Shown here: positions 7,445 through 43,300 of the stretch, piece after piece
Position numbering within the stretch: position 1 is the first letter of the stretch
Layout: every line of letters begins with the position of its first letter
Translations under genes and position numbers: made by a program
DNA from: Patescibacteria group bacterium UBA3531
Lineage (GTDB): Bacteria > Patescibacteriota > Minisyncoccia > Phycocordibacterales > UBA3531
Reading direction: 5' to 3'
Assembly: GCA_002376885.1 (NCBI GenBank)
Contig: DFOW01000001.1
Location: 79,381 to 143,380 of the forward strand
Length of the DNA stretch: 64,000 bases
The notes under the pieces: model-generated
Seen by the model: the letters and a program-made list of their open reading frames with translations, nothing else
What the model was told of the DNA's origin: nothing
Databases searched by the model: none

Positions 7445-7581
7445 GGTATTTTATTTATCTAATAAGTGATTCTTATTATATCGCTGAAATGTTATCTCGC
7501 AAAACAAGAAAAGACTCAATCCCCAGGTTTACTAATTTAATCCTTGCCTCGTGCCATACTTTAAACAGAGAGGGGGAGGTC

Positions 7582-7842
7582 ATGTTTGAACTTGTCCTCA
7601 TCTTCATTTCCACGTTCGATGGGAAAATGGCGGGAAGTACCGTCATCAATCATGAGGTCGTTGGTTTGTTCGACACCAAGACTCAATGTGAGCGACACGC
7701 CGACGCCTATGAAGGGGGTACGTGGCGCAAGTTCACGCTCATGGGCTCGAACAAGGACAACGAGAGGGTCCAGGTACAACTCATGATGAAGTGCATGCCA
7801 GCTGGCCAGGGACCGGCAGTTGCGAAGAGGCCGTCCAAATAA
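7582..7842 (+). CDS. Small hypothetical protein encoded in a high-GC patch
   Basis: GGAGG RBS directly upstream of the ATG, G/C-enriched third codon positions. Followed by a GC-rich hairpin (ggccg...cggcc) plus T-run. Confidence 0.4.
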   Translation: MFELVLIFISTFDGKMAGSTVINHEVVGLFDTKTQCERHADAYEGGTWRKFTLMGSNKDNERVQVQLMMKCMPAGQGPAVAKRPSK

Positions 7843-7886
7843 GGCGGCCTTTTCCCTACTCCATAACCCAAAAGTGTTACTCAAAA

Positions 7887-7915
7887 CAAAAGACCCCCCA
7901 ACGGGGCTCTTTTGC
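7887..7915. terminator. Bidirectional intrinsic-terminator-like hairpin (caaaagaCCCC...GGGGctcttttg) between convergent small genes
   Basis: Imperfect GC stem flanked by an A-run upstream and a T-run downstream on the plus strand. Confidence 0.45.
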
Positions 7916-7935
7916 AGCTTCTTTTAATATTAAAA

Positions 7936-8097
7936 TTAGCTCTTTGGGAGTATCTTGTACATCCCGGTACCACAGACGGAACACTTGCCCTTAGCTGCCT
8001 TTCGTCCATTCTTCATGGTAACCTCTTGGACGTCTTGCATCTCTCGGCCCGCTTTGTCCCGACACTTTACGCAGTACCCCATTACTTTGTCTGACAT
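7936..8097 (-). CDS. DUF5679-like small zinc-ribbon protein (53 aa)
   Basis: MSDKVMGYCVKCRDKAGREMQDVQEVTMKNGRKAAKGKCSVCGTGMYKI matches the CxxC-(MKNGR)-CxxCG pattern of the DUF5679 family common in Actinobacteria. Start chosen at the internal Met of the longer 112-aa ORF. Confidence 0.55.
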   Translation of the reverse strand: MSDKVMGYCVKCRDKAGREMQDVQEVTMKNGRKAAKGKCSVCGTGMYKILPKS

Positions 8098-8161
8098 ATA
8101 CAAAAATCCTACCACATAGGCAGGATTTTTGAATAGAGGCCTCCGCTCCTGTGGAAATCGA

Positions 8162-8545: not shown

Positions 8546-8950
8546 AGGCTATGTAAAATTATGCTAATAATATTTTATCGACCTCTTTAAAAAAGAGAGG
8601 GAAAATTCACACCTTTATTATATCAAGCGCTCATGATCTAAAAACCAAAAAATCCCCTCTTTATGGGGATTTTTGTCCAGTGTGGTGGACCACACTATCC
8701 CGTCACTCGAACCGCTCCAATTCGCCCTGGTGTCGAACTTCGTCATCCTCTTTGGGACGAGAAGATGCTCGAGATGCAACGCAAATGGATTTGGGAATTG
8801 AATCCGAGATTAGAGAAAGATGAAGTTGAAGCTGCCGTCTATGCGTGGCTTGCGTATGCGGAGTATGTGGTAAGGTTGGTGGAGAGAAAGTGAACCAAAG
8901 AGAAAGGCCCGACCGAGGTCTGACCAATCTCTTGGTTGACCTGTCGGGCC

Positions 8951-9452
8951 CTACTTGTCCAGGTCGACGAACGAGGCGTCGATGAGCGTCAGGTACTCGA
9001 GGTCCGGACTGACGTCGCCGATGACGTTGCCGAGCTCGCCCACATCATCCGGGACGCCGACCACCAGGCACTCGAGGCCCATGTAGGTCACCTTCATGCC
9101 GGACTTGAGAGTCTGGCCCTTGAGCTGCTTGAGCACCTCGCGGGGAATCCCCTCGTCATCACCCCAGGCGAACGCGCGCGGAATCCCGAACCTCTCCAGA
9201 ACGCTGCTCCAGAAGAGCTCCGCGTCCCACTCCTCGTACTCCCCATCGGGATACTCCTCGAGACTTGTGACACGGGCAGCTTCCCGAAGAACGCTCGCCG
9301 GGATGCACGGACGGGTCGTCTCGTCGTCGGTGAAGAGACTCGGGAACCCCTTCTGGAGACCCTCGAGGGGTCGCCTTGTCGTCGGTCAAGCTCACGCAGA
9401 GCCTGAGCCACGGATCGGAGACCTTGCAGATTTCCTGCCAATTCCTGTTCAT
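8951..9452 (-). pseudogene. High-GC gene of unknown function, apparently frameshifted
   Basis: The minus-strand frame reading ...EEYPDGEYEEWDAELFWSSVLERFGIPRAFAWGDDEGIPREVLKQLKGQTLKSGMKVTYMGLECLVVGVPDDVGELGNVIGDVSPDLEYLTLIDASFVDLDK* has almost exclusively G/C at third positions. The only upstream ATG (9452, MNRNWQEICKVSDPWLRL) lies in a different frame. Confidence 0.45.
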
Positions 9453-9588
9453 GGTCCTTCTCTCTCCTTCCTGAATCCGCCAGCCGAAGCTGGTGTGTTC
9501 AGGTAGAGAGAGAAATCACTACCTGGGTGGATAGTGACACAGTATTGTGTATTTGTCTAGACTACGAGATTCACCGTAGTGACGATAG

Positions 9589-9662
9589 TGGACCCGACTG
9601 GATTCGAACCAGCGACCTCCTGAGTGCAAAACAGGTGCTCTAGCCAACTGAGCTACGGGCCC
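9589..9662 (-). tRNA. tRNA-Ala (anticodon UGC)
   Basis: Minus-strand sequence GGGCCCGUAGCUCAGUUGGCUAGAGCACCUGUUUUGCACUCAGGAGGUCGCUGGUUCGAAUCCAGUCGGGUCCA. Acceptor stem carries the G3:U70 wobble that is the Ala identity element, T-loop GGUUCGAAUCC, anticodon loop UUUGCAC. CCA is not encoded. Confidence 0.85.
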
Positions 9663-9738: not shown

Positions 9739-9741
9739 TAC

Positions 9742-9999
9742 TCAACCCGCGAGAGAATTATATATTCTTTTCTTCAGATGTGTAAAGGCTCCACTAAATC
9801 TCTTCAACTGCTTTTCTCTATACTTTGCATCAGAACGAGAGTTATAAGCTTCGTAATATACTAACTCAAAAGGAGCCTTACTTTTTGTTGATTTACTCTG
9901 TTTTGTATTATGTTCCTCAAAACGTCTTTTTAAATCATTGGTATAACCAATATAGAGACTTTCATCTGTCTTGCTCTTCAAGACATACACATAATACAT
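9742..9999 (-). CDS. GIY-YIG nuclease-superfamily small protein (UPF0213-like)
   Basis: MYYVYVLKSKTDESLYIGYTNDLKRRFEEHN fits the GIY-x10-YIG motif followed by the R...E...N core. Confidence 0.8.
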   Translation of the reverse strand: MYYVYVLKSKTDESLYIGYTNDLKRRFEEHNTKQSKSTKSKAPFELVYYEAYNSRSDAKYREKQLKRFSGAFTHLKKRIYNSLAG

Positions 10000-11030: not shown

Positions 11031-14000
11031 TTAGTAGACTTCCTTAATCTTCGCACGCGTCATAGGCCCCGCATACCCGTAAAAGGCATCTGTTGGGATA
11101 GCTAAGTTATGTCGCTCTTGGAACTTCCCGACAGCTCGTCTGGTTAAGGTTCCATAGTAGCCAGTGGTTAAGCCTTCAGGGTAGATGGTGGTGTCTTGAG
11201 CAAGGATTTGTTGGAGAAGTCTTGTTTGACTACTGGTGGTATTGAATCTAAAGGGTCCGGTAAGGTTTGTGGTACTGACGGTAAAGGTTTGATTGCCTGT
11301 TGGTGAGGTGTTTCCTTGGAGAATGTTACGTACGGTATCTAAGGTAGTTTGATCAACGTTGAATGAGGTGAGTAGGGTGATTATGGACGTGACTTGGGCG
11401 CTTGTTAAGCCTGAACCTGTGCTTGGTTGTGAGGGCTGGGATGGAGTTTGTGGCTGAGTTGGGGTGGTTGTTTGTTTCCTTGTTCCACCGCTGAAACTTG
11501 GTGGTAGTGATGCTACTGCTCCCGTACTTGTAGTGGTGTTTGTGGTGCCTCCGGTATTGGTGATGGTGGCAGTGTCACTCGTTGTGTCAGTTGACTCTTT
11601 GGTATCAGTGAAGGTGGCCGTCAAAATGGTTGAACCACTTGGCACATTGAGGGCCCCATCACTTCCTGATACAGAGCCAGTATTAATACTTGGTGATCCG
11701 GTGAAGATACCGGTAGCGTTTCCAGTTTCAGTAAGGGTAACAGTTTCGGTGTCACCATTTGAAAGAGATGCGGTAATGGTAAAGGAGTCAGTACTTGTGG
11801 CACTGGTATTAGCATCTCCATCTAAGACGGTGATAGTTGGGCTGTCACTGGTGGTATAGCCATCTTGGTTTAAACTCGTCGTTGATGACGCACTAATGTA
11901 TCCCGTTGATTCGTTTAAGTAACCTCCTAGGTTGGTGAAGGAGTTGAGAACCGTGGTAACCGCACTCGTTAAGAAGCTTGCCCCACCATCGAGGGCTAAG
12001 TTGTAGTACTGAAGGACGGGGATGGTGGTTTGGGTACTGGTTGCCTTGTAGGTCACGGTACCGGTACCGGGAGTAAAGGTTCCGTTGACGGTGAGAGGAG
12101 TACTTGAGGCAGTGGCATCCGTTAAGAAGAGATTGTTTGATCCGAGTGAAAGGGTTTCTCCACTTGCAATGGTTAAGCCAGAGCTTGTGGCATTTGATCC
12201 AAGGGTGAGGGATGCCGCAGCAGTTGTTGAGGCAACGGTGAGATCTCCCAGGTCAAAGGCTCCACTGTTGTCCGTGAAGGTGGTGGTGCCATCGATGGTG
12301 AATGCTTCTCCGTTTCGAGTGTAAGATCCTCCACTTCCAATGGTAATGTCTTCTCCGACCGTTAGGGTGACATTGTTCGTGTCTATGTCTAAGTCACCAT
12401 CGGTGATGGTGAGATTGTTATCGACATCAACGTTATTTGAGAAGATGACGTCATTGCTTCCTGAAGCTCCGGTATTGTTGAGGGTGAGGTTGTAGAAGGA
12501 GTCATTGATTTCAATGGTTTGGTCAGTTGAGCCCGTAAAGGCGACTGTCCCCGTCCCCACAAAAAACGAGTCTGCCGTATCAAAAGTAAAATTTCCGCCA
12601 AGATTAAGAGTATTTCCATTTAGTATTCTTATAATACCCGTTGTAGGAAAAAGATGAGCCTCTGTAACATTTCCATTTATTGTTACGGTACTATCTCCAG
12701 ACAAAACAATATCTCCATCATAAAAACTAGCGGCCCCAAGTTGCGCGTTGCCTTCAATAGTAAGGTCATTCCCATTAGTATCCAAGTCTAAGGTCTTTAC
12801 AAGCCCAGATCTAATTAAAAAATTACCACCAATTGTTGTACTACCCGTTAAAGATAGTACATTACTGGCTGCACCAGAGTTATTACCGAAAAGGGTATAA
12901 TCTTCAAACAGACCTCCCAAAACATTTAAAGACGTAACAACTGTTGGGACCGCATAATAAAAGTCCGTATTAGCCATTAGGACAGTTGAGTTAGATGTAT
13001 TCATGGTTCCTGCATTCAAATAAATTTCGGTATTAGTAAAATCTTTGTGCTCTGTTATTGTCCCAGAACCTGGAAAAAAAATGTTCGTTACATAAAAACT
13101 ATTGGAATCTCCTCCTCGAAGCTGTGTTTCCTTTGTGCTGGTTGCAATTTCAAGATTATAAAATGTTAAATCTGTACCATCGGAGGGTCCGTAATCAATT
13201 CGACCATCCCCGATAAGTTTTACCGTACTTGTGTCGGGGGTAAAAATTGGAGCACCCCAACTACTAAGAGCAGCATACCTTAAAAAAGAAGAGTCTATGG
13301 TTATGGTCTCGTCATTGGCATCAAGTTCTCCAAACGTTCCAATCACTAAATCGCCCGCCCCAACAAAACCCTGTTCATCATCTACAGTTAAACTTGCGTT
13401 AAGGTCAAGAATAGTTGTAATTTGACCGCCGCAGGAACTAATAAAAGACCCGTGCGGTTTTCCTATCGTGAGTCTTCCAACGGTGACTGCTGATGTTACC
13501 GTAACGGTAGTGGTAGATGTTACCGTGTCGTCACACAGGGTCACGTCATACGTATTATCGTTTGGTATGGCACCACAGCTCCAGTTACTAGTTGAATCAG
13601 CCCAATCGGCATTTCCTCCAACCCATGAGCACTCGACTTTAGTACTGTTTGTTGTGGTTGCATTAAAGAATGGCTCTATAGGAAGGGAATAGGTACTACT
13701 GTCTGTTGGTACTGTTTCTCCCTGAGAATCATCACCATACCCCATAGACACAGCCAATATTCCAGTAGCTGCCTCTGCTAGATTAAGTTCCAGTTGGGTT
13801 GTGCCAACAGTGGCAACACTCGATACTGTTTTAGGAATACCATTGTCTGTGACATAAAAACCTCCCGACCCACTTCCCGGAAGAATGGGTCCTGTGTCAT
13901 CAGTAAATGTTAAGGTGATGGTGTCTCTTGTTCCGTTTTCCTCTGCACTAACAAAACGAGGGCCGCGCCCATCATCGGACCCACTATAGTATTCTCCTTC

Positions 14001-15050: not shown

Positions 15051-15152
15051 TTTGAATGATTATAGCACAGGGTCGCATTATGCCTGTGGATATGCTATAA
15101 GGTTTCTAGATTTATAACCTATTGCCCTTCGTGGCTAGGAAAGGACAGTACC

Positions 15153-16295
15153 TTGAGACATCGAAGTCGAGTCATGTTTTTTATGGCCGTAGTGGTCATG
15201 ATGAACATCGGTGCAAACGATTGCCAGAACAACCAGGCACCGGTCCCCTCTCCGCTTCCTCAGCCTCTCATGACGATGCTTGCAGGAAACGATATGGAGG
15301 TTCGTGGGAACGACTGCCCTGTCACCTCGACATTTGTTGAGGCAAGCTGGAACGGAGGCCCTTGGATCTACGTCGGCTCATGCACCCTCGGTGAGTACGA
15401 AGGATTTCTGCCTCCCCAGGGGGCTGGCCATGGAATCCTCGCCATCCGAGACAACACAGGGCAGATCCTCCGAACGACACTTTCTGTCGGATGGGGTCTA
15501 CCGATCGAGATCACCGGCCAGTCGAATGCCACTGGCCTCATGGAAACCTTGATCAATGCGATCTCTTCGCTTGCTTCGGTATTCATGGTCGGCCACCAGA
15601 ACGAGGCCGAATCCATCAAGCACGCCGACGATCGCTTCACCGACCACGGCAATGGCTCTGCGTGGCCCCTCCTTGCAGATGAAATCATTGGACAGACAGG
15701 GCTTCCTGTCATGTTCATTTCTTCACCGGTGGGGGCAACATCAGTCAGCCAGTGGGTTCCTGGTGGGAATCTTCGCGAAAGGGCGAAGGATCTGAGAATG
15801 ACCGCAACGAATGATTGTTCGGCTGCAGACATCTTCTACCAGGGAGAGAACGAACCTGTATTCGCCTCTAATCCCACGATCGATCCCGAAACGGGTCTGA
15901 CTTTTGGCGAGCTGTGGCTCGCCTCAATCGGGGGAGATTTGAAGCAGTACTACAAGGGAGAGCTCTTCAAGATCGCAGACGATCACATGAATGCGGGGTG
16001 TGGAGGAACTCCGCTTGTCATCGTCCAGATTGGAGACAATACTGCCAACCAGAATCCAGGTATCCAGGGCTTCATCCAAGAGGTTCGGGACGCCCAGTAC
16101 GAGGCAGCAATCGAGCACCCCAACATCCACCTGGGAGCCTGTACTGCCGGTCTTCCGGTCCCTGACGGTCTCCACCTGGGCGATGATGCTCGAGAGGAAT
16201 TCGTTTCGCGACTCATGAAAGGCTTGGCGCCAGTGCTCTGGGGTGGGCCGGTTCCAACCGACGAAGAGCTTGGATGCACGCCTCCGCAAGTCTAG
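15153..16295 (+). CDS. SASA/SGNH-type carbohydrate esterase encoded in a high-GC island (homologous to the N-terminal domain of the adjacent giant protein)
   Basis: Blocks ITGQSNATG, SAWPLLADEIIGQTGLPVMFISSPVGATSVSQW, IFYQGENEP, VPDGLHLGDD. Strong G/C third-position bias. The start may instead be the Met at 15174. GC-rich terminator follows the stop. Confidence 0.7.
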   Translation: MRHRSRVMFFMAVVVMMNIGANDCQNNQAPVPSPLPQPLMTMLAGNDMEVRGNDCPVTSTFVEASWNGGPWIYVGSCTLGEYEGFLPPQGAGHGILAIRDNTGQILRTTLSVGWGLPIEITGQSNATGLMETLINAISSLASVFMVGHQNEAESIKHADDRFTDHGNGSAWPLLADEIIGQTGLPVMFISSPVGATSVSQWVPGGNLRERAKDLRMTATNDCSAADIFYQGENEPVFASNPTIDPETGLTFGELWLASIGGDLKQYYKGELFKIADDHMNAGCGGTPLVIVQIGDNTANQNPGIQGFIQEVRDAQYEAAIEHPNIHLGACTAGLPVPDGLHLGDDAREEFVSRLMKGLAPVLWGGPVPTDEELGCTPPQV

Positions 16296-16313
16296 CACTC
16301 GAACTTTTCACAA

Positions 16314-16346
16314 GGGCCACGTACTTCCGGTACGTGGCCCTTTTCG
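16314..16346. terminator. Intrinsic terminator hairpin gggccacgtac-ttccg-gtacgtggccc followed by a T-run, between the convergent esterase and giant-protein genes
   Basis: Perfect 11-bp GC-rich stem read directly, with ttttcgtt downstream. Confidence 0.6.
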
Positions 16347-20953: not shown

Positions 20954-20960
20954 AAGGGCT

Positions 20961-20995
20961 CACGGCCGGAGGAAACTCCGGCCGTGCTCTATTTA
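20961..20995. terminator. Intrinsic terminator cacggccggag-gaaa-ctccggccgtg plus T-rich tail (bidirectional; uvrA converges on it)
   Basis: Perfect 11-bp stem and GAAA tetraloop read directly. Confidence 0.65.
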
Positions 20996-28653: not shown

Positions 28654-28683
28654 ACGTAAGGATTTACGTAAATCCTTACGTAA
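28652..28683. repeat. Perfect 32-nt palindrome ttacgtaaggatttacgtaaatccttacgtaa containing three TTACGTAA cores
   Basis: Reverse complement equals itself; begins inside the terminator T-run of the candidate ncRNA. Confidence 0.9.
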
Positions 28684-28693
28684 ACACATTCCC

Positions 28694-28979: not shown

Positions 28980-28987
28980 AAAAAAAC

Positions 28988-30943
28988 CTATTTCTCTAGC
29001 TCCGCCAGTTTCTCCAAGTAATCCAAGATCGTGTGAATATACTCTGCGTGGCTCCAGGTTAGTGGGGCAACAGATAATTGTTCCCCAGTATACGGATCAA
29101 ATTGTTCTGCCAAGATTCCAGAACGAGGCGCGCGCTTAAAAATCCAGTCTAATTTTTTTTCAACTTCTTTTAGATCTTTGACTGTTTTTGCTTTAGCAAT
29201 TTCGTATTGATACATCCACAACGTAGTAATAATCCACGGATTTGGAATCTCTGCACGTCTATGGTATTGATCTCCTTCATATCTAATTGCACCACCAATA
29301 TCACCCTCATGGATCACACAACAAGGACCCTCCTGAAGCTGTGCAAACCCTTCTTGGTTTTTTGGATCATCTACCGGCAATACCCCAAACCGAAACGGAC
29401 CATAAAAACTACTGATGTCGTGTGTTCTGTCATAGGTAGGTTCTTTTGTTCGGTAGTCAATAAGTTTATAGAAAAATTTCTCATCTTTATTATAAAGATG
29501 TTTTTTAATAGCTGACTTTACAGCACTTGCTCCGTCTTTATATTTTTTGGCATCGAGCTTTTTACCAAGTGTCTCTGCAAAATTTGATGCAGCCATAAGC
29601 CCCGCATACACTACTGATGAAGAGTATGCTGTTGTTCCAAATTTCTCTTCCCATAAGTCATAGCTTCCGTATGGTAAGCCTGTCTTTTCGTCTCGATAAA
29701 AGTAGAGGAAATCTGCAGCTTTTTTAATGAACGAATTATAAATCTTTTCTATAAACTCAAGATCTTTTCTTCTTTTATAGTGCTCCCATAGGGCATATAA
29801 AATAATTGCTGTTTCATCTTCTTGGATTGCTAACTGTTTTTTGCCTTCATATACCCATGGATGCCAACTACTTCCAAGCGATCCATCGGGGCTAAATTTA
29901 TGATTCAAATATCCTTCCTCACTTATTACTTGATTACAAAATTCATAGAAACGTTTGGTGGTATCAAAATACCCAAGACGATCAAAAGCAGTTGCTGTTA
30001 CCCCTGCATCTCGCGGCCACATATATGCATATGTATCGTGCCCATGATGAGAAATATCAGAGTCCCCTGATGCAATGATAGACCCTCGCTTATCAACATG
30101 CGTTTGCATAATAAGGAGTGATTTTTTAAAAAGCGAAACAAGCTTTGCATCAAGCCCATTAAAATCAAGATCAACTTTATTAACCCACGCATGCCAATAG
30201 TCTCGTGTTGTTTGAATAAGATGCTCGGGAGTTTTTATATGGATATAGTTATGTATCCCCTTTACCTCATGAATTGTATTGGATGACACAACCCAATAAT
30301 GGATTACTGATTCTCCGTCACCTTTTATTTCTGTTTCAAATGATATTGTTGAATCAACAGAACCATGTTGGATAGGATTATTTGAAAGGTTTCCATCTTC
30401 AGCATCCTTCCATGTTCCTTCTTTTCCTTGAGTTTGATAAAGGCCAATACCATATTCTTTAAATGGCTTTCCATCCATTTTCCCCGAAACCAAAAAATTT
30501 GTTTTATTACGGTAATGAATAATAGCAGTCAAATCTGGATCGTAATATGCAGTATGACCGCCGTCGTCTTCTCCTTGAAATTGCTGGTTGAAAAATATTT
30601 TAAATGAACGCGTACGTGGCATGGTATTTTTTACCGACACCTTCCGCAAAAAAATATTTTGCTCGTTATAGATTGCGTCACTAAAATTAAGCTCAATACC
30701 AAGAGCCTTGTGTCGTGCTCGAATAGAAGAAACCATGGTTTCTTTTTCGTAATCAATAACGGTCTCCCACCCTGGACCAGAAAGCCAACTCATGTTGCCA
30801 TCTACCCATACACCAATTTTGTGTTGTCGGCCTCCTGTATGGTTTTCTTGCCCAACATACGGATAGAAAAAATCACATACTTGCGCACAATTATCGTATG
30901 CAATTAACATTTCTCCATTACCCAATACTAAAGAGCGAGGCAT
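28988..30943 (-). CDS. Glycoside hydrolase family 15 (glucoamylase/glucodextranase-like)
   Basis: 651 aa. N-terminal SLVLGNGEMLIAYDNCAQVCDFFYPYVG beta-sandwich followed by an (alpha/alpha)6 catalytic region (WPRDAG...). Architecture typical of bacterial/archaeal GH15. Confidence 0.8.
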   Translation of the reverse strand: MPRSLVLGNGEMLIAYDNCAQVCDFFYPYVGQENHTGGRQHKIGVWVDGNMSWLSGPGWETVIDYEKETMVSSIRARHKALGIELNFSDAIYNEQNIFLRKVSVKNTMPRTRSFKIFFNQQFQGEDDGGHTAYYDPDLTAIIHYRNKTNFLVSGKMDGKPFKEYGIGLYQTQGKEGTWKDAEDGNLSNNPIQHGSVDSTISFETEIKGDGESVIHYWVVSSNTIHEVKGIHNYIHIKTPEHLIQTTRDYWHAWVNKVDLDFNGLDAKLVSLFKKSLLIMQTHVDKRGSIIASGDSDISHHGHDTYAYMWPRDAGVTATAFDRLGYFDTTKRFYEFCNQVISEEGYLNHKFSPDGSLGSSWHPWVYEGKKQLAIQEDETAIILYALWEHYKRRKDLEFIEKIYNSFIKKAADFLYFYRDEKTGLPYGSYDLWEEKFGTTAYSSSVVYAGLMAASNFAETLGKKLDAKKYKDGASAVKSAIKKHLYNKDEKFFYKLIDYRTKEPTYDRTHDISSFYGPFRFGVLPVDDPKNQEGFAQLQEGPCCVIHEGDIGGAIRYEGDQYHRRAEIPNPWIITTLWMYQYEIAKAKTVKDLKEVEKKLDWIFKRAPRSGILAEQFDPYTGEQLSVAPLTWSHAEYIHTILDYLEKLAELEK

Positions 30944-33604: not shown

Positions 33605-34501
33605 ATGGGAGAATTTAGTGTTATTTTGCAAGAAATTATAAGCTCTCTTGGGTTTCGAGAGCTTTTAGACATTGTTATTGTTGCTACTCTTATTTATCTT
33701 GGACTTATTTTTATTCGAGAAACACGTTCATTTTTTATTTTCAGTACGCTTTTAATCCTCTCTGGTGTTGTATATCTTTCAGAACTTATCGATTTAGGAT
33801 TAACACGTCAATTGTTTCAACCATTTCTTACCTTTTTCCTTTTGATAATTGTTATTGTCTTTCAAAAAGAAATTAGAAGGTTTTTTGAGTGGTTTTCTAT
33901 TCCAAAAGAAGGGCTTCTACGTTTTAAACGCAACAAAAACACTGCTGGACTTGCACAAAAAATATCTCAAGCAGTAAATGCAATGATAAAAGAACACGTG
34001 GGTGCACTTATTGTACTTGCTGGAGTACATCCTCTTGAACACTCTATTGAGGGGGGTATTGAACTTGGGGGGAAGGTGTCGGTCCCTCTTCTGCTTTCAA
34101 TTTTCAATACTGAAACCCCAGGACATGATGGCGCAGTCATTATTGAAGATGGAAAAATAAAGTATTTTGGTGCGCACTTACCACTTGCCCAAAAAGTTGA
34201 GGGGCTCACGCGCGCTGGTACTCGTCACCGTGCCGCAACAGGACTCACTGAAGAAACCGATGCCCTTGTAATTGTTGTCTCTGAAGAGCGCGGAATTGTA
34301 TCACTTGCACAAAATGGACATATTAAACAAGTTTCAAAAGATGTTTTCATCGACAGGGTCTCTAGTTTTATTCGAGAACAAGCGATACAAAAAAATGACA
34401 AGTCCAGATGGTGGGATTACCTACTAATAGAGAATTGGATTGAAAAATTAATTAGTATTATTTTTGCTCTTGTTCTTTGGATAGTGTTTATCTTTTATTG
34501 A
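33605..34501 (+). CDS. cdaA: Diadenylate cyclase (c-di-AMP synthase), membrane-anchored CdaA type
   Basis: Three N-terminal TM helices. DisA_N motifs GALIVL, TPGHDGAVII, AGTRHRAATGLTEETDALVIVVSEERG. Confidence 0.85.
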   Translation: MGEFSVILQEIISSLGFRELLDIVIVATLIYLGLIFIRETRSFFIFSTLLILSGVVYLSELIDLGLTRQLFQPFLTFFLLIIVIVFQKEIRRFFEWFSIPKEGLLRFKRNKNTAGLAQKISQAVNAMIKEHVGALIVLAGVHPLEHSIEGGIELGGKVSVPLLLSIFNTETPGHDGAVIIEDGKIKYFGAHLPLAQKVEGLTRAGTRHRAATGLTEETDALVIVVSEERGIVSLAQNGHIKQVSKDVFIDRVSSFIREQAIQKNDKSRWWDYLLIENWIEKLISIIFALVLWIVFIFY

Positions 34502-35385
34502 ATACATTCGTTGAATGCACGGACTTGTGTATTGTAAGTATTTGTTAATTGCTTTGTTTGTGCAATAAGATCGTTATACGTTGCCACATAACCGTTGTAT
34601 ACTTCCACCTTCTGATTATAGACACTCCCCCTTTTTGGACTAAATGAATTGAGCTCTGCCTGGAGTGAATCAAGAGTATCTGCAAGTCCGTTGAGTTCAA
34701 TCTTATTGTTTTCAATCTGGTTTGCTAGGGTACTGTTTATAAAGGGGCAATCAGACCTGGGTCTTCCAAATTCTTGTACTGCAAGCCATGTTTCTCTTCC
34801 TTCATAAACTCCTCTTTTAACTGATATACCAATCTCAGTAAAATTATCACTTAAAATATTTGCCCGGTGGCCGGGGCTATTCATCCAGGCCTGGACAAGC
34901 GCTTCATCATTTTCAAAATTCCCAAGGGCTAGATTTTCTCCAACAGATAAATAGTTGTACCCGACTTGTTCCATAATACCGTCTACACCAACACCATTTG
35001 GAGAGACATGTTCAAAATATTGATTGGTAAACATATCATCTACTTTTATCTCAGCTCCAACCGAAAGCGTTTCATCTAACAAGAGAGGGGGAAGATCACT
35101 GTTAGCGCGCTGGATATTTGTCCAAGCAAATACTCCTCCAACGGTTAAATCTGCGTTTGGATCACCAAAGTCAAAAAAAGTAACGAGCGGTTCAGGAAGG
35201 GAAAAAGTTTCTTTTGGGGTTTCTCCCTTCTCTTCCTTTACCGCGACAATTTCTCCAATATCATTGAGTGCTTCTTGTGTGTTTTCCGGAAGTGAGAAGT
35301 TAGAATCATTTTTTATAAACTCTCCAATAAAAAAACCTCCCCCAAGGAGGATCACAACCAAAAGAGTTGTTGCAAGCTTACTCAT
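34495..35385 (-). CDS. Secreted CAP-domain (SCP/PR-1/YkwD-like) protein with a C-terminal coiled region
   Basis: HVSPNG, GENLA, WMNSPGHRANIL motifs of CAP domains. N-terminal TM/signal. Confidence 0.7.
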   Translation of the reverse strand: MSKLATTLLVVILLGGGFFIGEFIKNDSNFSLPENTQEALNDIGEIVAVKEEKGETPKETFSLPEPLVTFFDFGDPNADLTVGGVFAWTNIQRANSDLPPLLLDETLSVGAEIKVDDMFTNQYFEHVSPNGVGVDGIMEQVGYNYLSVGENLALGNFENDEALVQAWMNSPGHRANILSDNFTEIGISVKRGVYEGRETWLAVQEFGRPRSDCPFINSTLANQIENNKIELNGLADTLDSLQAELNSFSPKRGSVYNQKVEVYNGYVATYNDLIAQTKQLTNTYNTQVRAFNECIQ

Positions 35386-35407
35386 AACTAAAGTATATCA
35401 CGAGGTA

Positions 35408-35435
35408 TTTGACAAACTTTTTGGTACGTCTAGTA
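35408..35435 (+). promoter_or_regulatory. Sigma70-like promoter TTGACA-N16-TAGTAT upstream of the IclR-like gene
   Basis: Read directly; low-GC promoter immediately followed by a high-GC coding patch. Confidence 0.45.
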
Positions 35436-35490
35436 TGGAAATCAGAATTGGGGGGATGGGCCGTGTGCCCAAAAGGAGCTCGGAAAGCAA

Positions 35491-35964
35491 ATGCCGAAAG
35501 CAGCCGAAGAGTACATGATCGAGACGCTCGCCCGAGGGATGAGGGTCTTCGCCCTCATCGCAACGAGTCCCTCGAACAGCATCGGGGTGACCGAGATCGC
35601 GACGACGTTGGATCTTCAAAAGAACAACGTCTTCCGGATCCTGAAGACGCTCGAGGTGGAAGGCTTGGTCTCCCACAACGGCGAGACCGATGCCGACAAG
35701 TGCCGCTACGGGCTGGGGCCCAAGGCCATCGAGCTCGGCGAGTGGCTCCTCATCCACGCCGACAAGACCGTGGTCGAGGTGGTCGAGTTCTTCAAGGGAG
35801 CCGATGGGCCGGGGAGCGTGAAGCTCACGGCAACAGCTCGCGTCGAGAACCGTGACGACGTCGAGGAGGACCTCCGGATGGAGGCGAGCGAGCTCGCCGG
35901 ACGTCTGGCGGTCACGCCCGACGAGGGGCTCGAAGTCGTTCCCGCAACCGGGACCGACGGCTAG
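35491..35964 (+). CDS. Truncated IclR-family transcriptional regulator (N-terminal HTH only), in a high-GC patch
   Basis: VFALIATSPSNSIGVTEIATTLDLQKNNVFRILKTLEVEGLVS matches the IclR HTH_IclR domain. GC-rich codons. Followed by a GC-rich hairpin plus ttctttct. Confidence 0.6.
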   Translation: MPKAAEEYMIETLARGMRVFALIATSPSNSIGVTEIATTLDLQKNNVFRILKTLEVEGLVSHNGETDADKCRYGLGPKAIELGEWLLIHADKTVVEVVEFFKGADGPGSVKLTATARVENRDDVEEDLRMEASELAGRLAVTPDEGLEVVPATGTDG

Positions 35965-36015
35965 AGCTACGAAAGAGGGAGGCCACTGGGAGACCGGTGG
36001 CCTTCTTTCTATTAC

Positions 36016-36402
36016 TTATTCTGTGGTAACCCCGTCAAAATGTTCCTCTTTTTCTTCTGCTTTTGTTGGGTGAACTGTTTGATCTTTGTGTTCAGGAGGC
36101 GAATAAATACTGTAAAGTTTTAAATCGTTATCACTAGTATTGATTACATTGTGTTTTGTTCCTTGTGGAATAACTACCGCCATCTCTGCATAAACATCAT
36201 GTTCCACATCATCCAAAATCACCTTTCCTTTTCCCTCTTCAAACCGAATAAACTGATCGAGCTCATGCACCTCCTCTCCAATCTCGTCTCCTGGTTTTAT
36301 GGTCATCAATACTAATTGACTGTTTTTTGATGTATACAGGACCCTTCTGTAATCTTTATTTTCTTTGGTTTCTTTTTCTATGTTTGCTATATATCCTTTC
36401 AT
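36016..36402 (-). CDS. Cupin-fold protein
   Basis: 128 aa. Metal-site-like pattern G.E.G.E.H....F..E (GDEIGEEVHELDQFIRFEEG) and a second cupin motif PQGTKHNVIN. Confidence 0.65.
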   Translation of the reverse strand: MKGYIANIEKETKENKDYRRVLYTSKNSQLVLMTIKPGDEIGEEVHELDQFIRFEEGKGKVILDDVEHDVYAEMAVVIPQGTKHNVINTSDNDLKLYSIYSPPEHKDQTVHPTKAEEKEEHFDGVTTE

Positions 36403-36408
36403 TAAAGT

Positions 36409-36735
36409 TTATTCATTATCTTCTAATCGTTTCCCCCATTGCCAACGCGGTTTTTCTCCTGTTGCGTATGCAATCCGTATAAATAAAAGTGTGAGAACAA
36501 TAAGTGGAAGAAACACCCGAAGCATAAATTCATCGTCACTCACATATTCTGCTGAATAGCCAAGCATTCCCATTACTCCAATATACAAAAAAGTTACAAG
36601 CCATCCTTCCCACGATGAGGGATACCAACCCCATCCAAAAAGCTTTCGTTTAAACCAAAGCTTTTTTTGTATTGTGTCCTTAGACGGTGTCGCGTCGTTC
36701 GGTGTCATAATCTTCTTGTGCATCAGCCTCAACAA
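36409..36735 (-). CDS. Hypothetical small membrane protein
   Basis: Two or three hydrophobic helices; no motif recognised. Confidence 0.45.
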   Translation of the reverse strand: MLRLMHKKIMTPNDATPSKDTIQKKLWFKRKLFGWGWYPSSWEGWLVTFLYIGVMGMLGYSAEYVSDDEFMLRVFLPLIVLTLLFIRIAYATGEKPRWQWGKRLEDNE

Positions 36736-38403: not shown

Positions 38404-39690
38404 TTAAAACACCTGACTCCTATAAACATGGTTAAACTCTGGGAACTCTTTTGGTTCAACATTAAGTACCTTTACTGTTCCCGTCTCTTTATCAATTTCA
38501 ATAGTTGCAAAGCTTTTATTATTGTTACGTGTTATCTCGTTCAGAATATTTTCTGGATTTACATTGAATGACAAAGTATACACCCCTGACGCAAGGTCGG
38601 TTATATCAAGATTTTGATCAACATAGGTAAAGAAGTACGTATCTCCCCACCCAACCGACACCCCTTGTCGCTCCTTACCACAAATTAAATATCGTGCCTC
38701 GCTATCTTTAAATGCTTCGTCATTTATTTGTGTTACGTCTCTAATACAAAAAGTAGTTTTTTGTTCTTGCTTGCCACTAAACACATGGGGATGACTATCA
38801 TCGTGTACATGGTCATGTTGATTACGTGCACTAATATTCTCTTCTTGAGTTTGAGAAAGAACATAGGTAACAAAATCACTGTAATGATAATGCAGATGCT
38901 CTTCGTGCCATAAAAAGATCCCTACGGGGGTATCTCTGTATGAGTCATCAGTTTTATAAATTCTTTGAAGTACCACTCTATCAATATCTTCTTTTATTCC
39001 AGCTGTGCCTGGATCAGCAACAAGTTCAAGAGGGCCTTCTCCTACATTGTAGTAGGTAGTACTAAACAATAAAAAGTCTCGCCCCCCTTCTTGTTTAAGC
39101 GTTATATCTTGTGGCGGAAGAGGAATAAGGTCTGGCAATAATTCAACCTCTCCACGCACGAAAGCTTCTATAATAGTTCGCTCTTTCTTTGAAATAACCC
39201 TATCAAAAAATTTATTTTTATTAGAGTATCGTTCGTCTATCCGCGATACAATTTTTTCTGCAACAAAGGCTGGTGTGTCGTCCGATGAAAATTCATACAA
39301 ACCAGGAACAAAAAAGTCCCCTAAAATCTCAATTGGTGGAATAATAAATTGTGTTCCGTGTATCAAAAAGGCCTCGCGCTCAAGCTCCCCCCACTCAAGC
39401 TCTTGTGTTAAATATTCAAGAATATCTTGGTTATAAGCATCCCAGGTAATGCCACGAATTGCCTCTTGGAAGAGCTTTTCGTCATCCATCCCCCATCCGA
39501 ATTCTTCACCAATGGCATACGATAATGCCTTATGGTTGTATCCATCTTTTAAATCAACAAAGAGTGCTTGTGGTTCGCCACTTTCTACACGATTTAAAAA
39601 TACAAAAGGAGAAAAATAAAAATATCCTGAAACAAGGATACTGATAAACATTACAATCGTGAGGGACTTCCAAGGCATTACTTTTTCCAA
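38404..39690 (-). CDS. Hypothetical secreted/membrane-anchored protein (428 aa)
   Basis: N-terminal TM helix, His-rich patch (HEEHLHYHYSD...HDHVHDDSHPH); no family recognised. Confidence 0.5.
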   Translation of the reverse strand: MEKVMPWKSLTIVMFISILVSGYFYFSPFVFLNRVESGEPQALFVDLKDGYNHKALSYAIGEEFGWGMDDEKLFQEAIRGITWDAYNQDILEYLTQELEWGELEREAFLIHGTQFIIPPIEILGDFFVPGLYEFSSDDTPAFVAEKIVSRIDERYSNKNKFFDRVISKKERTIIEAFVRGEVELLPDLIPLPPQDITLKQEGGRDFLLFSTTYYNVGEGPLELVADPGTAGIKEDIDRVVLQRIYKTDDSYRDTPVGIFLWHEEHLHYHYSDFVTYVLSQTQEENISARNQHDHVHDDSHPHVFSGKQEQKTTFCIRDVTQINDEAFKDSEARYLICGKERQGVSVGWGDTYFFTYVDQNLDITDLASGVYTLSFNVNPENILNEITRNNNKSFATIEIDKETGTVKVLNVEPKEFPEFNHVYRSQVF

Positions 39691-39847
39691 TCTTTTATTA
39701 TGATGGTCTTTCCTTTCTTTGTAATCAGTAGCTTTTGACGTTCGCGAATATTGAGTTCATCTACAATCTCAGAAGGGATTACAATCGAAAGACTTCGTTT
39801 TCCTACTCGAGTAACCTTACGAACATATTTTTTCATAGCCCTATTAT

Positions 39848-40004: not shown

Positions 40005-40226
40005 ATGAAGAAGTCAATCCACACAAAAGAATACGCTTACTTCGTCGAGAAATTGCGAAAAGCGCGCCTTGAAGCAGGATTGACGCAGGTTCAGGTTGCT
40101 AAGAAGCTAAAACGTCCGCAGTCGTATATCTCCAATGTGGAATCAGGACAACAGCGTGTCGATGTTGTCGAATTGCAAAAATTTGCAAAAATGTACGGCA
40201 AGGACGTAAATTACTTTTTTAAATAA
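40005..40226 (+). CDS. XRE-family helix-turn-helix transcriptional regulator
   Basis: LRKARLEAGLTQVQVAKKLKRPQSYISNVESGQQ is a canonical Cro/C1-type HTH. Confidence 0.8.
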   Translation: MKKSIHTKEYAYFVEKLRKARLEAGLTQVQVAKKLKRPQSYISNVESGQQRVDVVELQKFAKMYGKDVNYFFK

Positions 40227-40234
40227 TTTTAATT

Positions 40235-40624
40235 ATGTTTAACAAGAAATTCATTGGTTCTACTGTTGCCCTGGTGGTGGGAGTCCTTGCAATCGTTGCG
40301 GGATTAGCTGAACCATCAAGTACAATGTTTGCAGGTATTTATATCGTACTTGGCTCGCTAGCTTACAGGTCACTAAAAAAGAGAAAGTTGGGCATGGTTC
40401 AGGATTCAAAAATCCGTCTAATTCTTGAGGTTGTGGGCATACTGGCAATTATTTTGCTAATACTCATGCAAAACAATCTACAGGCAAATATTGTGAACGA
40501 TCCGTTTCCAAATATCGTAATACCGCTATGGGTTATAGTTGCTTATCTTGTCGTTTACTTCCGCGGTACAAAAAGTAGCGAAGAAAAGGAAGCAAAAATT
40601 GAGGACTCCACTCAAACTACTTAA
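40235..40624 (+). CDS. Hypothetical membrane protein (4 TM)
   Basis: 129 aa, four hydrophobic helices; starts with MFN like the next gene. Confidence 0.55.
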   Translation: MFNKKFIGSTVALVVGVLAIVAGLAEPSSTMFAGIYIVLGSLAYRSLKKRKLGMVQDSKIRLILEVVGILAIILLILMQNNLQANIVNDPFPNIVIPLWVIVAYLVVYFRGTKSSEEKEAKIEDSTQTT

Positions 40625-40634
40625 ACCAAAAGTT

Positions 40635-41321
40635 ATGTTTAACTTTTCTACAAAAGAACAACGAAAGCTTGATGAGCAGCTATATTCTGTTGTAACTGAC
40701 GAAATTGAGCGTAACGAAATATATAAACCACTTTGGACAAAAGCTCTTGCCGATTCTGATAATGACAAGCAACGAGCGCAGGCTTTATATATCAAATATC
40801 GAGTTCAAAAGTTGAAAGATGAAATGCGTTTTGAAAAAGAACGGGAGCAAGCAAATGAGCGTGCTCGGGTTGCCACTGAAAACAAAAGGGTGAAATCTGA
40901 AAGAAGTATAACCACATTGGAAACTACAACATCTCATTTGCTATCCAGTTTCAAATGGCTAACAGCGATTATGCTAATCCTCGGGGCTATAGGTCTATTT
41001 TTGTCATACATAACAATTTCAGTCAGTTACGATTACAGTTGGTGGGTTCTTTCGGGTTTGAGTGTATTGCTTTTTGTGCTCGGCGGATACCTACTTTTTG
41101 ATTGTTTTAGAATTTCAAAAATAAGTGATCACAAAATACTCAAAAAGAAATTGAATACGTCTTTCTTAATTCTTATACCATTCTCACTTGTGGGAACAAT
41201 CATAGGAATAATCATGCCGTTGGTTGCACTGTTTATGTTTATAAGCTTTGTTGCATTAGTTATTCACGCAATCAAATTCAATCGTGCATTCAATTATGCA
41301 AAAAGAAATGGTTTGATATGA
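40635..41321 (+). CDS. Hypothetical membrane protein with a charged N-terminal cytoplasmic domain (LWTKALADSDNDKQRAQALYIKYRV) and a 4-TM C-terminus
   Basis: Start taken at the internal ATG (MFNFSTKEQ...) to avoid an 85-nt overlap with the upstream gene. The N-terminal region resembles a recurring G-x-LW-KAL-x-GD-x-KA-x-YI-x-RV module of unknown function. Confidence 0.5.
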   Translation: MFNFSTKEQRKLDEQLYSVVTDEIERNEIYKPLWTKALADSDNDKQRAQALYIKYRVQKLKDEMRFEKEREQANERARVATENKRVKSERSITTLETTTSHLLSSFKWLTAIMLILGAIGLFLSYITISVSYDYSWWVLSGLSVLLFVLGGYLLFDCFRISKISDHKILKKKLNTSFLILIPFSLVGTIIGIIMPLVALFMFISFVALVIHAIKFNRAFNYAKRNGLI

Positions 41322-41334
41322 CACTGTATAGATA

Positions 41335-42435
41335 ATGAAATGGATATTTGACTGGCTCATTAACTTATTTGGCAAGAAAGACATCGCACGAGATACGGAC
41401 GAGAGTTTTTTTCGTCCGATTTTGTTTTTGTTCCCTAATATTCTCAAAGAAAGCGTGTCGTCAGAAACGGATGTAAAAGATTGGCAAAAAGATTATCTCT
41501 CGAAAAACAAAAACATTGAAAAATATATCTTCAACGCCTGCGAAGCATTACAGGTCTGCGGAATCTCTTATACAAAATACAAGAAAGAACTCAAACGTTA
41601 CTCGGATGAAGAACTCAATAAAGGCGCGGGAGAAATTGTTGGCAGAAACTTTGAAATTGAAGCCCGGCTAATGCTAAGGCGAATGCTGGAGCTGTATGTG
41701 GAAAGCTGGCATTTCAAAGAAATCAAGAACGATAAAGAAACGATCTTCAGGCACTATTTCTTACTCCGAAATCTCAAAGCTTTTTATAGTAGAAAAACCA
41801 ACACAAAAGATTTTTGTGATTTTGATTTGGAATTTGATACCAAGGCTATTTCAGAAATCCGTACGGCGTTAAATAACTTATCTGTCCAAAATCCTTTTTA
41901 CCTAACGAATAATAAAGATCCGAACAAAGACAGTGATGTAAAAAAGTTGTTCAAACATTTTCGCGATTTGCTTGTGGAAGCTATGCCAAAAATGACGGAC
42001 GGACTGAGGGAAATGGTTGGTGAGTCATACCAGCTATATGCCGAAACCAGTGAAGTTGTTCATGGATTTTCGGGAGGACCGAATTTCAATCTACGCAATT
42101 ATCATCAAGAAATAACTGCGCTTTATGCAAGATCCGCGGTACTTGCTTCAAACATTTTGAAATATCTTGTAGTTATCGGCGATAACCAGATAAGCAATAC
42201 TGAAATAAAAGAAGCTATTAATGGCTTAAGAACTGACGATTTGCCTCATAGCTTCATGTTTGAAGTTGGAGATAAGGTTTTGGTGCTAGGGCAAATCAAA
42301 GCAGAAATTACGGAAATATCGCAATCAAAATATGGCTGCAAGAAATATAAAGTTAAATATAACGACAAGCGAGAAGATTGGAGTTGGTCTTTTGAGCGCG
42401 AATGGTTTTTATTGAAAGAGCTGACGAAGCTGTAA
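41335..42435 (+). CDS. Hypothetical cytoplasmic protein (366 aa), unknown family
   Basis: Long ORF with a strong hairpin after the stop (aatccccgtcgtt...aacgacggggatt, 42448..42490). No motif recognised. Confidence 0.6.
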   Translation: MKWIFDWLINLFGKKDIARDTDESFFRPILFLFPNILKESVSSETDVKDWQKDYLSKNKNIEKYIFNACEALQVCGISYTKYKKELKRYSDEELNKGAGEIVGRNFEIEARLMLRRMLELYVESWHFKEIKNDKETIFRHYFLLRNLKAFYSRKTNTKDFCDFDLEFDTKAISEIRTALNNLSVQNPFYLTNNKDPNKDSDVKKLFKHFRDLLVEAMPKMTDGLREMVGESYQLYAETSEVVHGFSGGPNFNLRNYHQEITALYARSAVLASNILKYLVVIGDNQISNTEIKEAINGLRTDDLPHSFMFEVGDKVLVLGQIKAEITEISQSKYGCKKYKVKYNDKREDWSWSFEREWFLLKELTKL

Positions 42436-42490
42436 GAATAAGGGAGCCAATCCCCGTCGTTTACAATTTTTCCTAAAACGACGGGGATTG

Positions 42491-43300
42491 CTGTTCGCGC
42501 ACTGGGCGGGCGGGGCAAGCACAATGCATCACCACCAACTTTAACGAAGCCACAGAGCGAACACGAAGCAAGCACCGAGCAGGCATCGCGAACGAATGTG
42601 AGTGGCCAATGCGAGGTGTTTGCGAAGTGTGAGCGTGTATAAGAACTACCACCAAACGCGGAGACGGGAGCGCCTCGGGCCGACGCGAAGCTAGAAAAAG
42701 CGGAGTATGGGAAATATAATGACCTTACGGAGCTTTTGGAAGCTGAAGCGACGGACGCAAACCAAAAATTTCCTTGCGATATCTTTTCGCCTAGCGGCGG
42801 AGGGGTCTGGGGAGGAGCCGCACAAAAATGAAAGGAAATTTTTTGTGTTTGCTCGCGCGAGGTACGAGCGCGCCCGGGGCGCAGAATCAACACACAAGCG
42901 GAGCGTACGAGTTAGGTTCGCATCACCACGCGCTCCGCGCGTGCGAAGTGGGTTCGCGCAATGTGTAATAATTCTTCACAAAACGAGACATAATCCAAAT
43001 CGTGAAAATTTTTTACTTTTGCCACAGGCAAAAGTGGGTACGCAAAATCGGTTTTCGTGTTGTAGGCAAAGACGAATTCAGAGAGAACGGAGCACCGGAG
43101 CGAATGCGGAGGCGCAGGGGCGTGAGCAGAATCACCACGCCTGCCTGCCGCAGGCAGGGACTCCAATGCGTACGCGGAAGGTTGGAGCCACCACGCGCGC
43201 GGCGCGTGATTAGTTGGTCTTTGACTCGAAATAAGTTCGAGCAAAGGCTACAATATCTTCGCAACTTTTTGAGCCTTATTTCTCAACGTCTTTTTTATCC
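42491..43300. other. GC-rich noncoding tract of about 800 bp with degenerate internal repeats and many perfect short palindromes; possible large structured RNA or decayed foreign DNA
   Basis: No frame has a convincing ORF. Repeats include GCGAA(CGAA)TGTGAGYG three times, gcagaatcaMcac twice, caccacgcgc..gcgcgtg twice. Palindromes include cctgcctgc-c-gcaggcagg, ctcgcgcgag, aaaaatttcct...aggaaattttt. Confidence 0.5.

Follow-up and report, generated by a model that had tools for sequence, protein, structure and literature searches.

GC-rich single-gene islands in a low-GC marine Paceibacterium: probable repeated lateral acquisition beside lineage-resident non-coding elements

What is the origin of short DNA patches that are far richer in GC than the genes around them in an otherwise low-GC genome? 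The question is raised by a 64,000-nt stretch of Patescibacteria group bacterium UBA3531 (NCBI GCA_002376885.1, contig DFOW01000001.1, positions 79,381 to 143,380; this whole stretch is called the window below). It holds eight such patches, which a preliminary description had listed and for which it had considered repeated lateral transfer, a family of mobile or selfish elements, or chimeric assembly. The protein-coding patches are best accounted for by lateral transfer, and the genes termed isl86, D, isl380, isl131, isl90 and IclR-like probably represent several independent acquisitions. The explanation does not extend to the patch at 42.5–43.2 kb, which is a conserved non-coding element; this patch and a tRNA gene are lineage-resident, happen to be GC-rich and stand outside the transfer process.

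The window has a GC content of 41.5%. Native genes (30 sampled) have a GC of 0.396 ± 0.022 and a GC at third codon positions (GC3) of 0.323 ± 0.030, with a maximum of 0.398, and 200-bp windows inside 30 native genes give a mean GC of 0.399, a standard deviation of 0.042 and a maximum of 0.51. All eight patches lie where they had been placed and display GC values of 0.50–0.64 with peaks of 0.56–0.685. The enrichment of G and C at third codon positions reported for the coding patches is equally clear, as the seven island open reading frames (ORFs) have a GC3 of 0.57–0.86 against 0.32 ± 0.03 in native genes, that is 8–18 standard deviations above them. Profiling of GC and GC3 thus places the patches beyond the native range, and normal variance does not account for them. 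In the coding islands GC at second codon positions (GC2) is ~0.41 while GC3 reaches up to 0.86, and codon periodicity is that of high-GC genes. GC3 falls into two tiers: gene D and the IclR-like gene have 0.84–0.86, the other island ORFs 0.57–0.68, which suggests different donors or different ages. A two-state hidden Markov model (HMM) of GC content calls six of the eight patches; the two that it misses, 7936–8097 and 23694–23936, are the weakest and are outlying by GC3 only. The model adds a patch at 28399–28640 that was outside the earlier list, and its segment 8831–9755, corresponding to the patch at 8.7–9.6 kb, extends beyond the listed end into tRNA-Ala. Islands called in this way cover 5.5% of the bases of the window, compared with 1.3% across 111 other Patescibacteria loci (1.96 Mb).

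Each coding island consists of one gene with its own Shine-Dalgarno sequence and a GC-rich hairpin terminator, and these units of 0.25–1.25 kb are scattered over intergenic slots (Table 1). The two perfect GC-rich hairpins described earlier, downstream of isl380 and of isl131, were read directly. The recipient can be placed through its UvrA protein: every relative in GTDB genomes belongs to the Patescibacteria, in most cases to Paceibacteria or Parcubacteria, at 73% identity or less; the source samples are from Tara Oceans, and the organism is therefore a marine Paceibacterium. A metagenome scan with UvrC returned a relative (L088) and neither the species itself nor a sister lineage of 88% identity that is described below. 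Across 160 related loci none of the island proteins is encoded, except DUF5679 in two.

Two of the islands flank uvrA in a DNA-repair cluster. The gene order TGT-uvrB-uvrA-uvrC is widely conserved, with uvrC found in 68, uvrB in 71 and TGT in 48 of 80 Patescibacteria loci. Across loci the gap between uvrA and uvrC measures between 9 and 4580 bp, and its GC shift averages 0.00 and does not exceed +0.11, whereas the insert of the window is shifted by +0.17. In the closest relative, L088 (amino acid identity of 85% for UvrA, 74% for UvrC and 80% for the protease encoded next to uvrA), the protease stop lies 5 nt from the uvrA start; in the window a 470-bp insert is found there. Between the isl90 island and the working uvrA start (23541), from which it is separated by a 60-nt spacer, lies a relic copy of the junction, made of ~20 nt from the end of the protease gene and the first 39 nt of uvrA (ATGGAAGAAGAAATTATCGTAAAAGGAGCACGGACCCAT). 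This relic aligns with the intact protease-uvrA junction of L088. At least one insertion, that at the isl90 site, duplicated part of its target. The uvrA-uvrC slot of L088 contains an unrelated low-GC antisense ORF and keeps the uvrC promoter box, and in other Paceibacteria the same slots are empty or occupied by other small genes. Throughout the class, the DNA-repair cluster is a hot spot of small-gene turnover. Orthologous sites were read at three islands only, the two beside uvrA and the IclR island.

The IclR island provides a view of one acquired gene across a lineage split. The IclR-like protein matches HTH_IclR (PF09339; HTH, helix-turn-helix) over residues 12–62 with E = 1.7e-10, has no Pfam match to the effector domain PF01614 and aligns in BLASTP only to residues 2–99 of a 259-aa IclR. 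The earlier label of a truncated IclR is thus apt and, on these alignments, the protein is an IclR-derived HTH fragment and not a full family member. A sister contig, L087 (Logan ERR3281025), is colinear with positions 34042–36013 of the window, gap-free and at 88.0% nucleotide identity, and carries the island with a GC of 0.66 and a protein of 84% amino acid identity. Because this sister holds the same GC-rich island, the insertion is older than the sister split and its GC content was kept. The two copies differ at 15, 10 and 23 first, second and third codon positions, with 25 amino acid changes in 157 residues, compared with 18, 11 and 93 differences and 25 changes in 296 residues for the neighbouring CAP gene; constraint on the IclR-like gene is relaxed and its frame is intact. 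Among 5.8 billion protein clusters its matches are the sister copy and a Binatia IclR at 32% identity.

Gene D, in contrast to the intact IclR-like frame, is a pseudogene. Three-frame translations show one extra C in a CCCC run of the coding (minus) strand, at plus-strand positions 9367–9370, which leaves the first 27 codons out of frame, and the frameshift is identical in three assemblies. Matches to family D start at about residue 28–34, which fits the displaced 27-aa N-terminus. The family is rare, with 96 representatives among 1.84 billion proteins, and its best named relative comes from a Candidatus Parcubacteria genome. Its AlphaFold2 model is confident (predicted local distance difference test, pLDDT, 92.7) and finds no fold match in PDB or BFVD. 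Of the five contexts of the family that were read, the window included, three show it as a GC outlier and two do not. Both outliers outside the window are single GC-rich genes, one of them that of the named relative in Parcubacteria L172 (8001–8501; GC3 0.84 against ~0.50) and the other on the 1.7-kb contig L183 (674–1174; GC3 0.70 against 0.38).

The esterase-like isl380 is the island gene for which a high-GC counterpart was found. Its N-terminus is signal- or lipoprotein-like, and its score against Pfam SASA (PF03629) is 24.6 bits, the curated cut-off being 24.8. The native gene next to it, in divergent orientation, encodes a 1339-aa protein that combines SASA and peptidoglycan-binding domains; isl380 shares 22% identity (E = 1e-12) with N-terminal residues 35–333 of that protein, the SASA domain included. 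The only outside homologue, P0005, has 49% identity, is also 380 aa long and carries PF03629 in precomputed annotation. Its contig has a GC content of 73% and also carries genes for an aromatic-ring hydroxylase, a short-chain dehydrogenase/reductase (SDR) and an enoyl-CoA hydratase, a setting unlike that in candidate phyla radiation (CPR) genomes. The GC3 of P0005, 0.92, matches that of its neighbours (0.96–0.97), and the gene therefore looks native on the 73%-GC contig and is probably foreign in the window. The taxon of that contig was sought through the hydroxylase, whose best plasmid matches are from Streptomyces and Rhodococcus at only 36–37% identity, which is not decisive.

The remaining islands carry proteins without recognised families. 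The sequence of isl86 is 100% identical in three assemblies, and the protein has no match in Pfam, PHROGs or PADLOC and no relative in IMG/VR. The same holds for isl131, which displays a clear 3-base periodicity and has no family match in Pfam, PHROGs or PADLOC and no IMG/VR relative; a single-sequence AlphaFold2 model (pLDDT 62.6) was too poor to use. The hairpin beside isl131 is probably a bidirectional terminator. The isl90 protein is zinc-ribbon-like, with three CxxC motifs and a CC pair, and its gene has GGAGG 8 nt upstream of the ATG; no significant Pfam match was obtained, and IMG/VR gave one weak 28-residue match.

Lateral acquisition would have proceeded through the uptake of DNA from higher-GC organisms, probably by the natural competence machinery known in Patescibacteria, and its fixation by illegitimate or micro-homology recombination. 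Integrases, att repeats and end motifs common to the islands are all absent. The donors would be of more than one class, or the acquisitions of more than one age. Once acquired, genes would either decay, as gene D and the IclR-like gene, or stay as accessory genes, as isl380 beside its related native enzyme. At least one donor would be a non-CPR high-GC organism, and others may be higher-GC Patescibacteria.

Several points weigh against such a history. No donor was found for any island in the databases searched. The direction of transfer is read from composition alone, because five coding island genes have no informative homologue. The search of 5.8 billion protein clusters gave no close homologue of the IclR-like gene beyond its own lineage, and the narrower searches made for isl131, isl86 and isl90 yielded nothing informative. 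The 49% identity between isl380 and P0005 is too distant to prove recent transfer and, given its distant homology to the native neighbour, isl380 might still be an old, fast-evolving paralogue of that protein. At the isl90 site the layout P - island - P'U' - spacer - U (P, protease; U, uvrA) does not fit a simple single insertion. Support for the island junctions comes from assembled contigs, not reads. Finally, the island load of the window is at the high end and four times the comparison mean, and it is not unique, as the same model gives a higher island fraction in 8 of the 111 comparison loci.

A more far-reaching version of lateral acquisition takes the coding islands as a fossil record of DNA that an episymbiotic Paceibacterium scavenged from a higher-GC host or neighbours through competence, without integrases and in a few permissive slots. 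Some islands would come from a promiscuous single-gene pool that lands repeatedly in low-GC CPR genomes, with family D as an example. Separately, a ~90-nt motif in the 42.5–43.2 kb patch would represent a new element of Paceibacteria, either regulatory or a non-coding RNA. Taken as a whole this version is speculative and rather unlikely. If it were true, the hosts of uncultured marine CPR bacteria could be named by tracing the islands to their donors.

Table 1. GC-rich patches, island genes and associated features. Positions refer to the window, except for the last three rows, which refer to the loci named; GC and GC3 are fractions, and the peak is the highest GC in a 200-bp window.
Feature	Position	Strand	GC	Peak GC	GC3	Description
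Patch	7582–7842		0.53	0.565		
isl86	7582–7842	+	0.53		0.68	86 aa; Shine-Dalgarno GGAGG; short GC hairpin terminator right after stop
Patch	7936–8097		0.50			
DUF5679 gene	7936–8097	-	0.50		0.61	Small zinc ribbon, 53 aa; Pfam PF18930, E = 4.6e-16; mild shift
isl76	8663–8893	+	0.50		0.48	76 aa, possibly shorter; convergent with pseudogene D on its right
Patch	8690–9588		0.57	0.65		
Gene D	8951–9452	-	0.64		0.84	Frameshifted copy of a ~165–180 aa protein family
tRNA-Ala(TGC)	9588–9662	-				ARAGORN and Rfam, 67.7 bits; adjoins island D, 3' end toward island
Patch	15100–16346		0.555	0.62		
isl380	15153–16295	+	0.56		0.62	380 aa; putative secreted or lipoprotein SASA-type carbohydrate esterase
isl380 intrinsic terminator	16314–16340	+				Perfect 11-bp GC-rich stem, then TTTT
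Patch	20558–20995		0.59	0.645		
isl131	20558–20953	+	0.59		0.65	131 aa, helical, acidic; antisense between uvrA stop and uvrC promoter
GC hairpin	20961–20986					Perfect 10-bp stem between convergent isl131 and uvrA
Relic junction copy	23600–23662	-				End of protease gene and start of uvrA
Patch	23694–23936		0.53	0.56		
isl90	23694–23936	+	0.52–0.53		0.57	80 aa from ATG at 23694; antisense between protease gene and uvrA
Patch	28399–28640	+	0.60			~250 nt; near-consensus promoter TTGACA-17-TATGAT at ~28370–28400; strong terminator 28598–28650
Patch	35445–36000		0.64	0.685		
IclR-like gene	35491–35964	+	0.64		0.86	157 aa; HTH and linker helix, unrelated acidic tail; terminator hairpin ~35980–36003
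Patch	42491–43300		0.53	0.605		
Non-coding patch	42479–43257					GC-rich, many hairpins; two copies of ~90-nt motif, 42900–42974 and 43165–43257
Motif copy, L028	15828–15921					
Motif copy, L043	15687–15787					
Motif copy, L063	21457–21551					

It is improbable that the islands form one family of self-inserting, composition-shifted mobile or selfish elements, such as single-gene cassettes, phage morons or integron-like cassettes. Such a family would agree with the form of every island, a compact single-gene unit with a strong terminal hairpin, with the recurrence of family D, a single GC-rich gene that stands out in three unrelated contexts, with the position of one island next to a tRNA and with the variation across the class in the slots that are used. 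Transferred genes often show mobility signatures such as an integrase, direct repeats or a tRNA target, but need not do so. Here no integrase, transposase or intI gene lies beside any island, and the mobile-element family that had been envisaged is not borne out by the island boundaries: no k-mer is common to them beyond chance, 8-mers common to three islands being found in 116 of 200 random controls. The 3' end of tRNA-Ala has no att-like repeat elsewhere in the window and, with no integrase either, an integrative element at this tRNA was rejected. The island proteins are mutually unrelated, the hairpins are simple stems followed by T-runs and not attC-like, and the two GC3 tiers argue for different sources. 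PHROGs has no match for five island proteins, and for the IclR-like gene both PHROGs and PADLOC return only generic HTH-regulator matches, so that no specific family emerges; three IMG/VR scans gave no useful result. A phage origin was likewise rejected, since PHROGs, PADLOC, GenBank phages, IMG/VR (in all three scans) and BFVD (by fold) gave negative or generic results.

A further account, in which the patches are native and intrinsically GC-rich as structured RNAs, regulatory DNA or small proteins of special amino acid make-up, is true for tRNA-Ala and fits the 42.5–43.2 kb patch, which is non-coding, strongly self-complementary and has its motif in three other Paceibacteria. It is also plausible for 28399–28640, with its promoter and terminator, and for DUF5679, which is mildly GC-shifted in other Paceibacteria too. 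As an account of the patches in general it has little probability, since the GC excess of the six coding islands sits at third codon positions, which points to mutation and codon-usage history and not to function; in addition the island genes are absent from relatives and one of them, gene D, is a pseudogene. The identity of DUF5679 given earlier is secure, its profile score of 59.1 bits lying above the curated threshold of 27. Two Paceibacteria loci carry homologues, L033 (at 66% identity and with a GC of 0.50, the locus having 42% GC) and L055. The gene has no GenBank phage match and one plasmid match, from Leptolinea (Chloroflexi), and is probably lineage-resident rather than recently foreign.

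GC-rich structured-RNA genes stand out in AT-rich genomes, a principle used to screen AT-rich archaea for non-coding RNA. It explains the tRNA, the 42.5–43.2 kb patch and the candidate RNA at 28.4–28.6 kb, all of them non-coding, self-complementary and GC-rich, although the latter two patches match no Rfam family, and covariation in the motif of the former is weak among five sequences. The stretch 42479–43257 has no codon periodicity, by which its interpretation as a decayed high-GC gene was rejected, and gives fold z-scores of -4.4 and -5.3 on the two strands. Its ~90-nt motif reads GAGCGTAYGA ... CCACCA-CGCGC-NNN-GCGCGTG ... ATTAGTYGG. A profile search detects it in Lloydbacteria L028 (E = 3e-23), Taylorbacteria L043 (2e-21) and Kaiserbacteria L063 (4e-11), of which only L063 is an independent detection, as L028 and L043 were included in the profile. 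The hairpin is conserved in the alignment of five sequences as CACGCGC-N3-GCGCGTG or CGCACGC-N3-GCGTGCG, with no formally compensatory pair among them. A TGNTAYAAT-like box follows the motif in L028 and L063, and tRNA-Ala(TGC) lies near two of the three outside copies. No Rfam match is found in 42200–43600 at E ≤ 1, and the whole window gives tRNA only against Rfam 15 at the gathering threshold; with no rRNA near the L063, L028 and L043 copies either, a known RNA or rRNA-operon spacer was rejected. By these sequence features the element is lineage-resident, conserved and non-coding in Paceibacteria, and not a product of transfer.

The patch at 28399–28640 is a plausible candidate for a small RNA gene. 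Its fold z-score is -2.06, the interval 28330–29000 gives only chance-level Rfam matches, and nhmmer finds no match in related loci. A perfect 34-nt palindrome, TTTACGTAAGGATTTACGTAAATCCTTACGTAAA, occupies 28651–28684, and in the intergenic interval 28690–28990, upstream of a GH15 gene, a ~65-nt direct repeat (…CCATATTTGGAAGCGTCCCTAAATAAAACCCTCTTGGAATAAT…) occurs twice.

It is very improbable that the islands are native DNA made GC-rich at recombination hot spots, by GC-biased gene conversion or some other local mutational bias. They do lie in fast-turnover slots, and third-position divergence from the sister is 23 of 158 codons in the IclR island compared with 93 of 297 in the flanking gene. 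Such a bias is difficult to reconcile with the jump of GC3 from 0.32 to 0.86 within a few bases at gene boundaries, with the low-GC cupin gene gained or lost in the same slot without a GC shift, or with the mean GC shift of 0.00 in the same variable slots of other Paceibacteria.

Chimeric assembly or binning, with high-GC reads of other organisms joined in, can be dismissed almost completely, because a chimera is not heritable and the sister lineage of 88% identity carries the IclR island, its contig L087 crossing both junctions. The same DNA is present in NCBI GCA_002708165.1 (PAMJ01000009), ENA ERZ27286447, a TARA scaffold, JGI 3300020447 and Logan SRR5324449. All islands are 99.99–100% identical in ENA ERZ27286447, NCBI PAMJ01000009 and JGI 3300020447, as are those covered by the Logan and TARA contigs, and every island junction is spanned at 100% identity by long contigs of four independent assemblies and assemblers (JGI, ENA, Logan and NCBI), each island and junction recurring unchanged in three or four of them. 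The islands sit precisely in the spaces that separate intact genes, and promoters, ribosome-binding sites and terminators are all in place. On the other side, three short contigs of other assemblies stop inside two islands, at ~20761–20788 and ~23780. Repeats were rejected as the cause, as there are no notable repeated 12-mers at the break points, and strain variation or low coverage is a possible one.

The transfer of genes from a higher-GC host or neighbour to a reduced epibiont has reportedly been seen in Saccharibacteria living on Actinobacteria, and this was the model of the preliminary description, which saw actinobacteria-like genes in the islands. Host-to-episymbiont gene acquisition is the subject of PMC7427843. 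The organism of the window belongs instead to the Paceibacteria, and none of the tests favours Actinobacteria in particular. As closest named relative, the IclR-like protein has the Binatia IclR, which is no close homologue, gene D the Parcubacteria protein of its family, and DUF5679 the Chloroflexi plasmid gene, in addition to its homologues in two Paceibacteria loci. Natural competence has been demonstrated in Saccharibacteria (Cell 2023, PMC10633639) and is a plausible entry for naked foreign DNA without integrases or phages; it is reported for Saccharibacteria only and with homologous recombination, whereas the insertions proposed here would be non-homologous.

Horizontal gene transfer into CPR genomes is already documented, and the locus is a new, well-resolved example of a known process. 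In Patescibacteria, transfer and genomic islands amount to up to 13% of genome length, and 83% of the inferred transfers are within the phylum (mSystems 2025, PMC12455944). As in the window, the acquired genes described there are compositionally atypical and lie in streamlined CPR genomes, and transcriptional regulators are among them; most of those transfers are within the phylum and some come from other phyla, and competence, phage and conjugation are the proposed routes. In contrast, the units here are one-gene insertions of 0.25–1.25 kb in intergenic slots of a DNA-repair cluster and not multi-gene islands, the genome is marine and not from groundwater, none of the databases searched contains a donor, and the relic duplicated junction and the pseudogene display the anatomy of insertion and decay.

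Patescibacteria have tiny genomes and mostly unknown hosts, and acquired genes are among the few clues to their partners and to innovation. The window offers a clean multi-assembly example of single-gene units entering intergenic slots of a conserved DNA-repair cluster, with a junction relic at one site, one gene decaying and one kept through a lineage split. It also carries a warning, in that high GC does not equal actinobacterial and not every GC-rich patch is a transfer. Minor leads are the promiscuous family D with its unmatched fold and the conserved non-coding motif of Paceibacteria.

Several neighbouring features complete the description of the locus. In loci L007–L086, ~12.6–12.9 kb, just downstream of uvrA, variable small inserts occupy the uvrA-uvrC and uvrB-uvrA gaps in many Paceibacteria. 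The relic junction creates a 54-aa ORF (23531–23695, minus strand) that contains the duplicated uvrA N-terminus MEEEIIVKGARTH and runs into the true uvrA start; this ORF is a by-product of the insertion event. A cupin-domain gene (36014–36418, 128 aa, GC 0.35) adjoins the terminator of the IclR island in the window and is not found in L087, and the IclR slot also turns over genes of native composition. Parcubacteria L172 holds a second GC-shifted small gene (2484–2906) with a faint match to a phage CI repressor.

Beside gene D, the only family match of isl76 is sub-threshold, to an Rv0078B-related antitoxin (E = 0.0085; 16.5 bits, the cut-off being 27.1), and a small GIY-YIG nuclease-domain gene (9742–9999, minus strand, 85 aa, GC 0.33) adjoins tRNA-Ala opposite island D. 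Ahead of the 42.5–43.2 kb patch, the plus-strand block 40005–42435 comprises an XRE-type HTH gene (73 aa) and genes for two predicted membrane proteins and a 366-aa protein, with a MazE-like antitoxin ORF upstream on the opposite strand (~39678–39836, minus). The two membrane proteins and the 366-aa protein have no PADLOC or PHROGs match, nor has the 366-aa protein, the only one of the three run against Pfam, a match there; the block, which extends up to the GC-rich non-coding patch, is possibly an accessory or defence-like module. Finally, the 1339-aa surface protein next to isl380 and the truncated gene at the left end of the window (>1312 aa) have in common a 1.47-kb segment of 86% identity (26–1473 and 11053–12521) and are paralogous giant secreted proteins with peptidoglycan-binding domains. 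A GC-rich HMM call at 338–1290 is due to the unusual composition of these giant proteins (GC2 above GC at first codon positions) and not to transfer.

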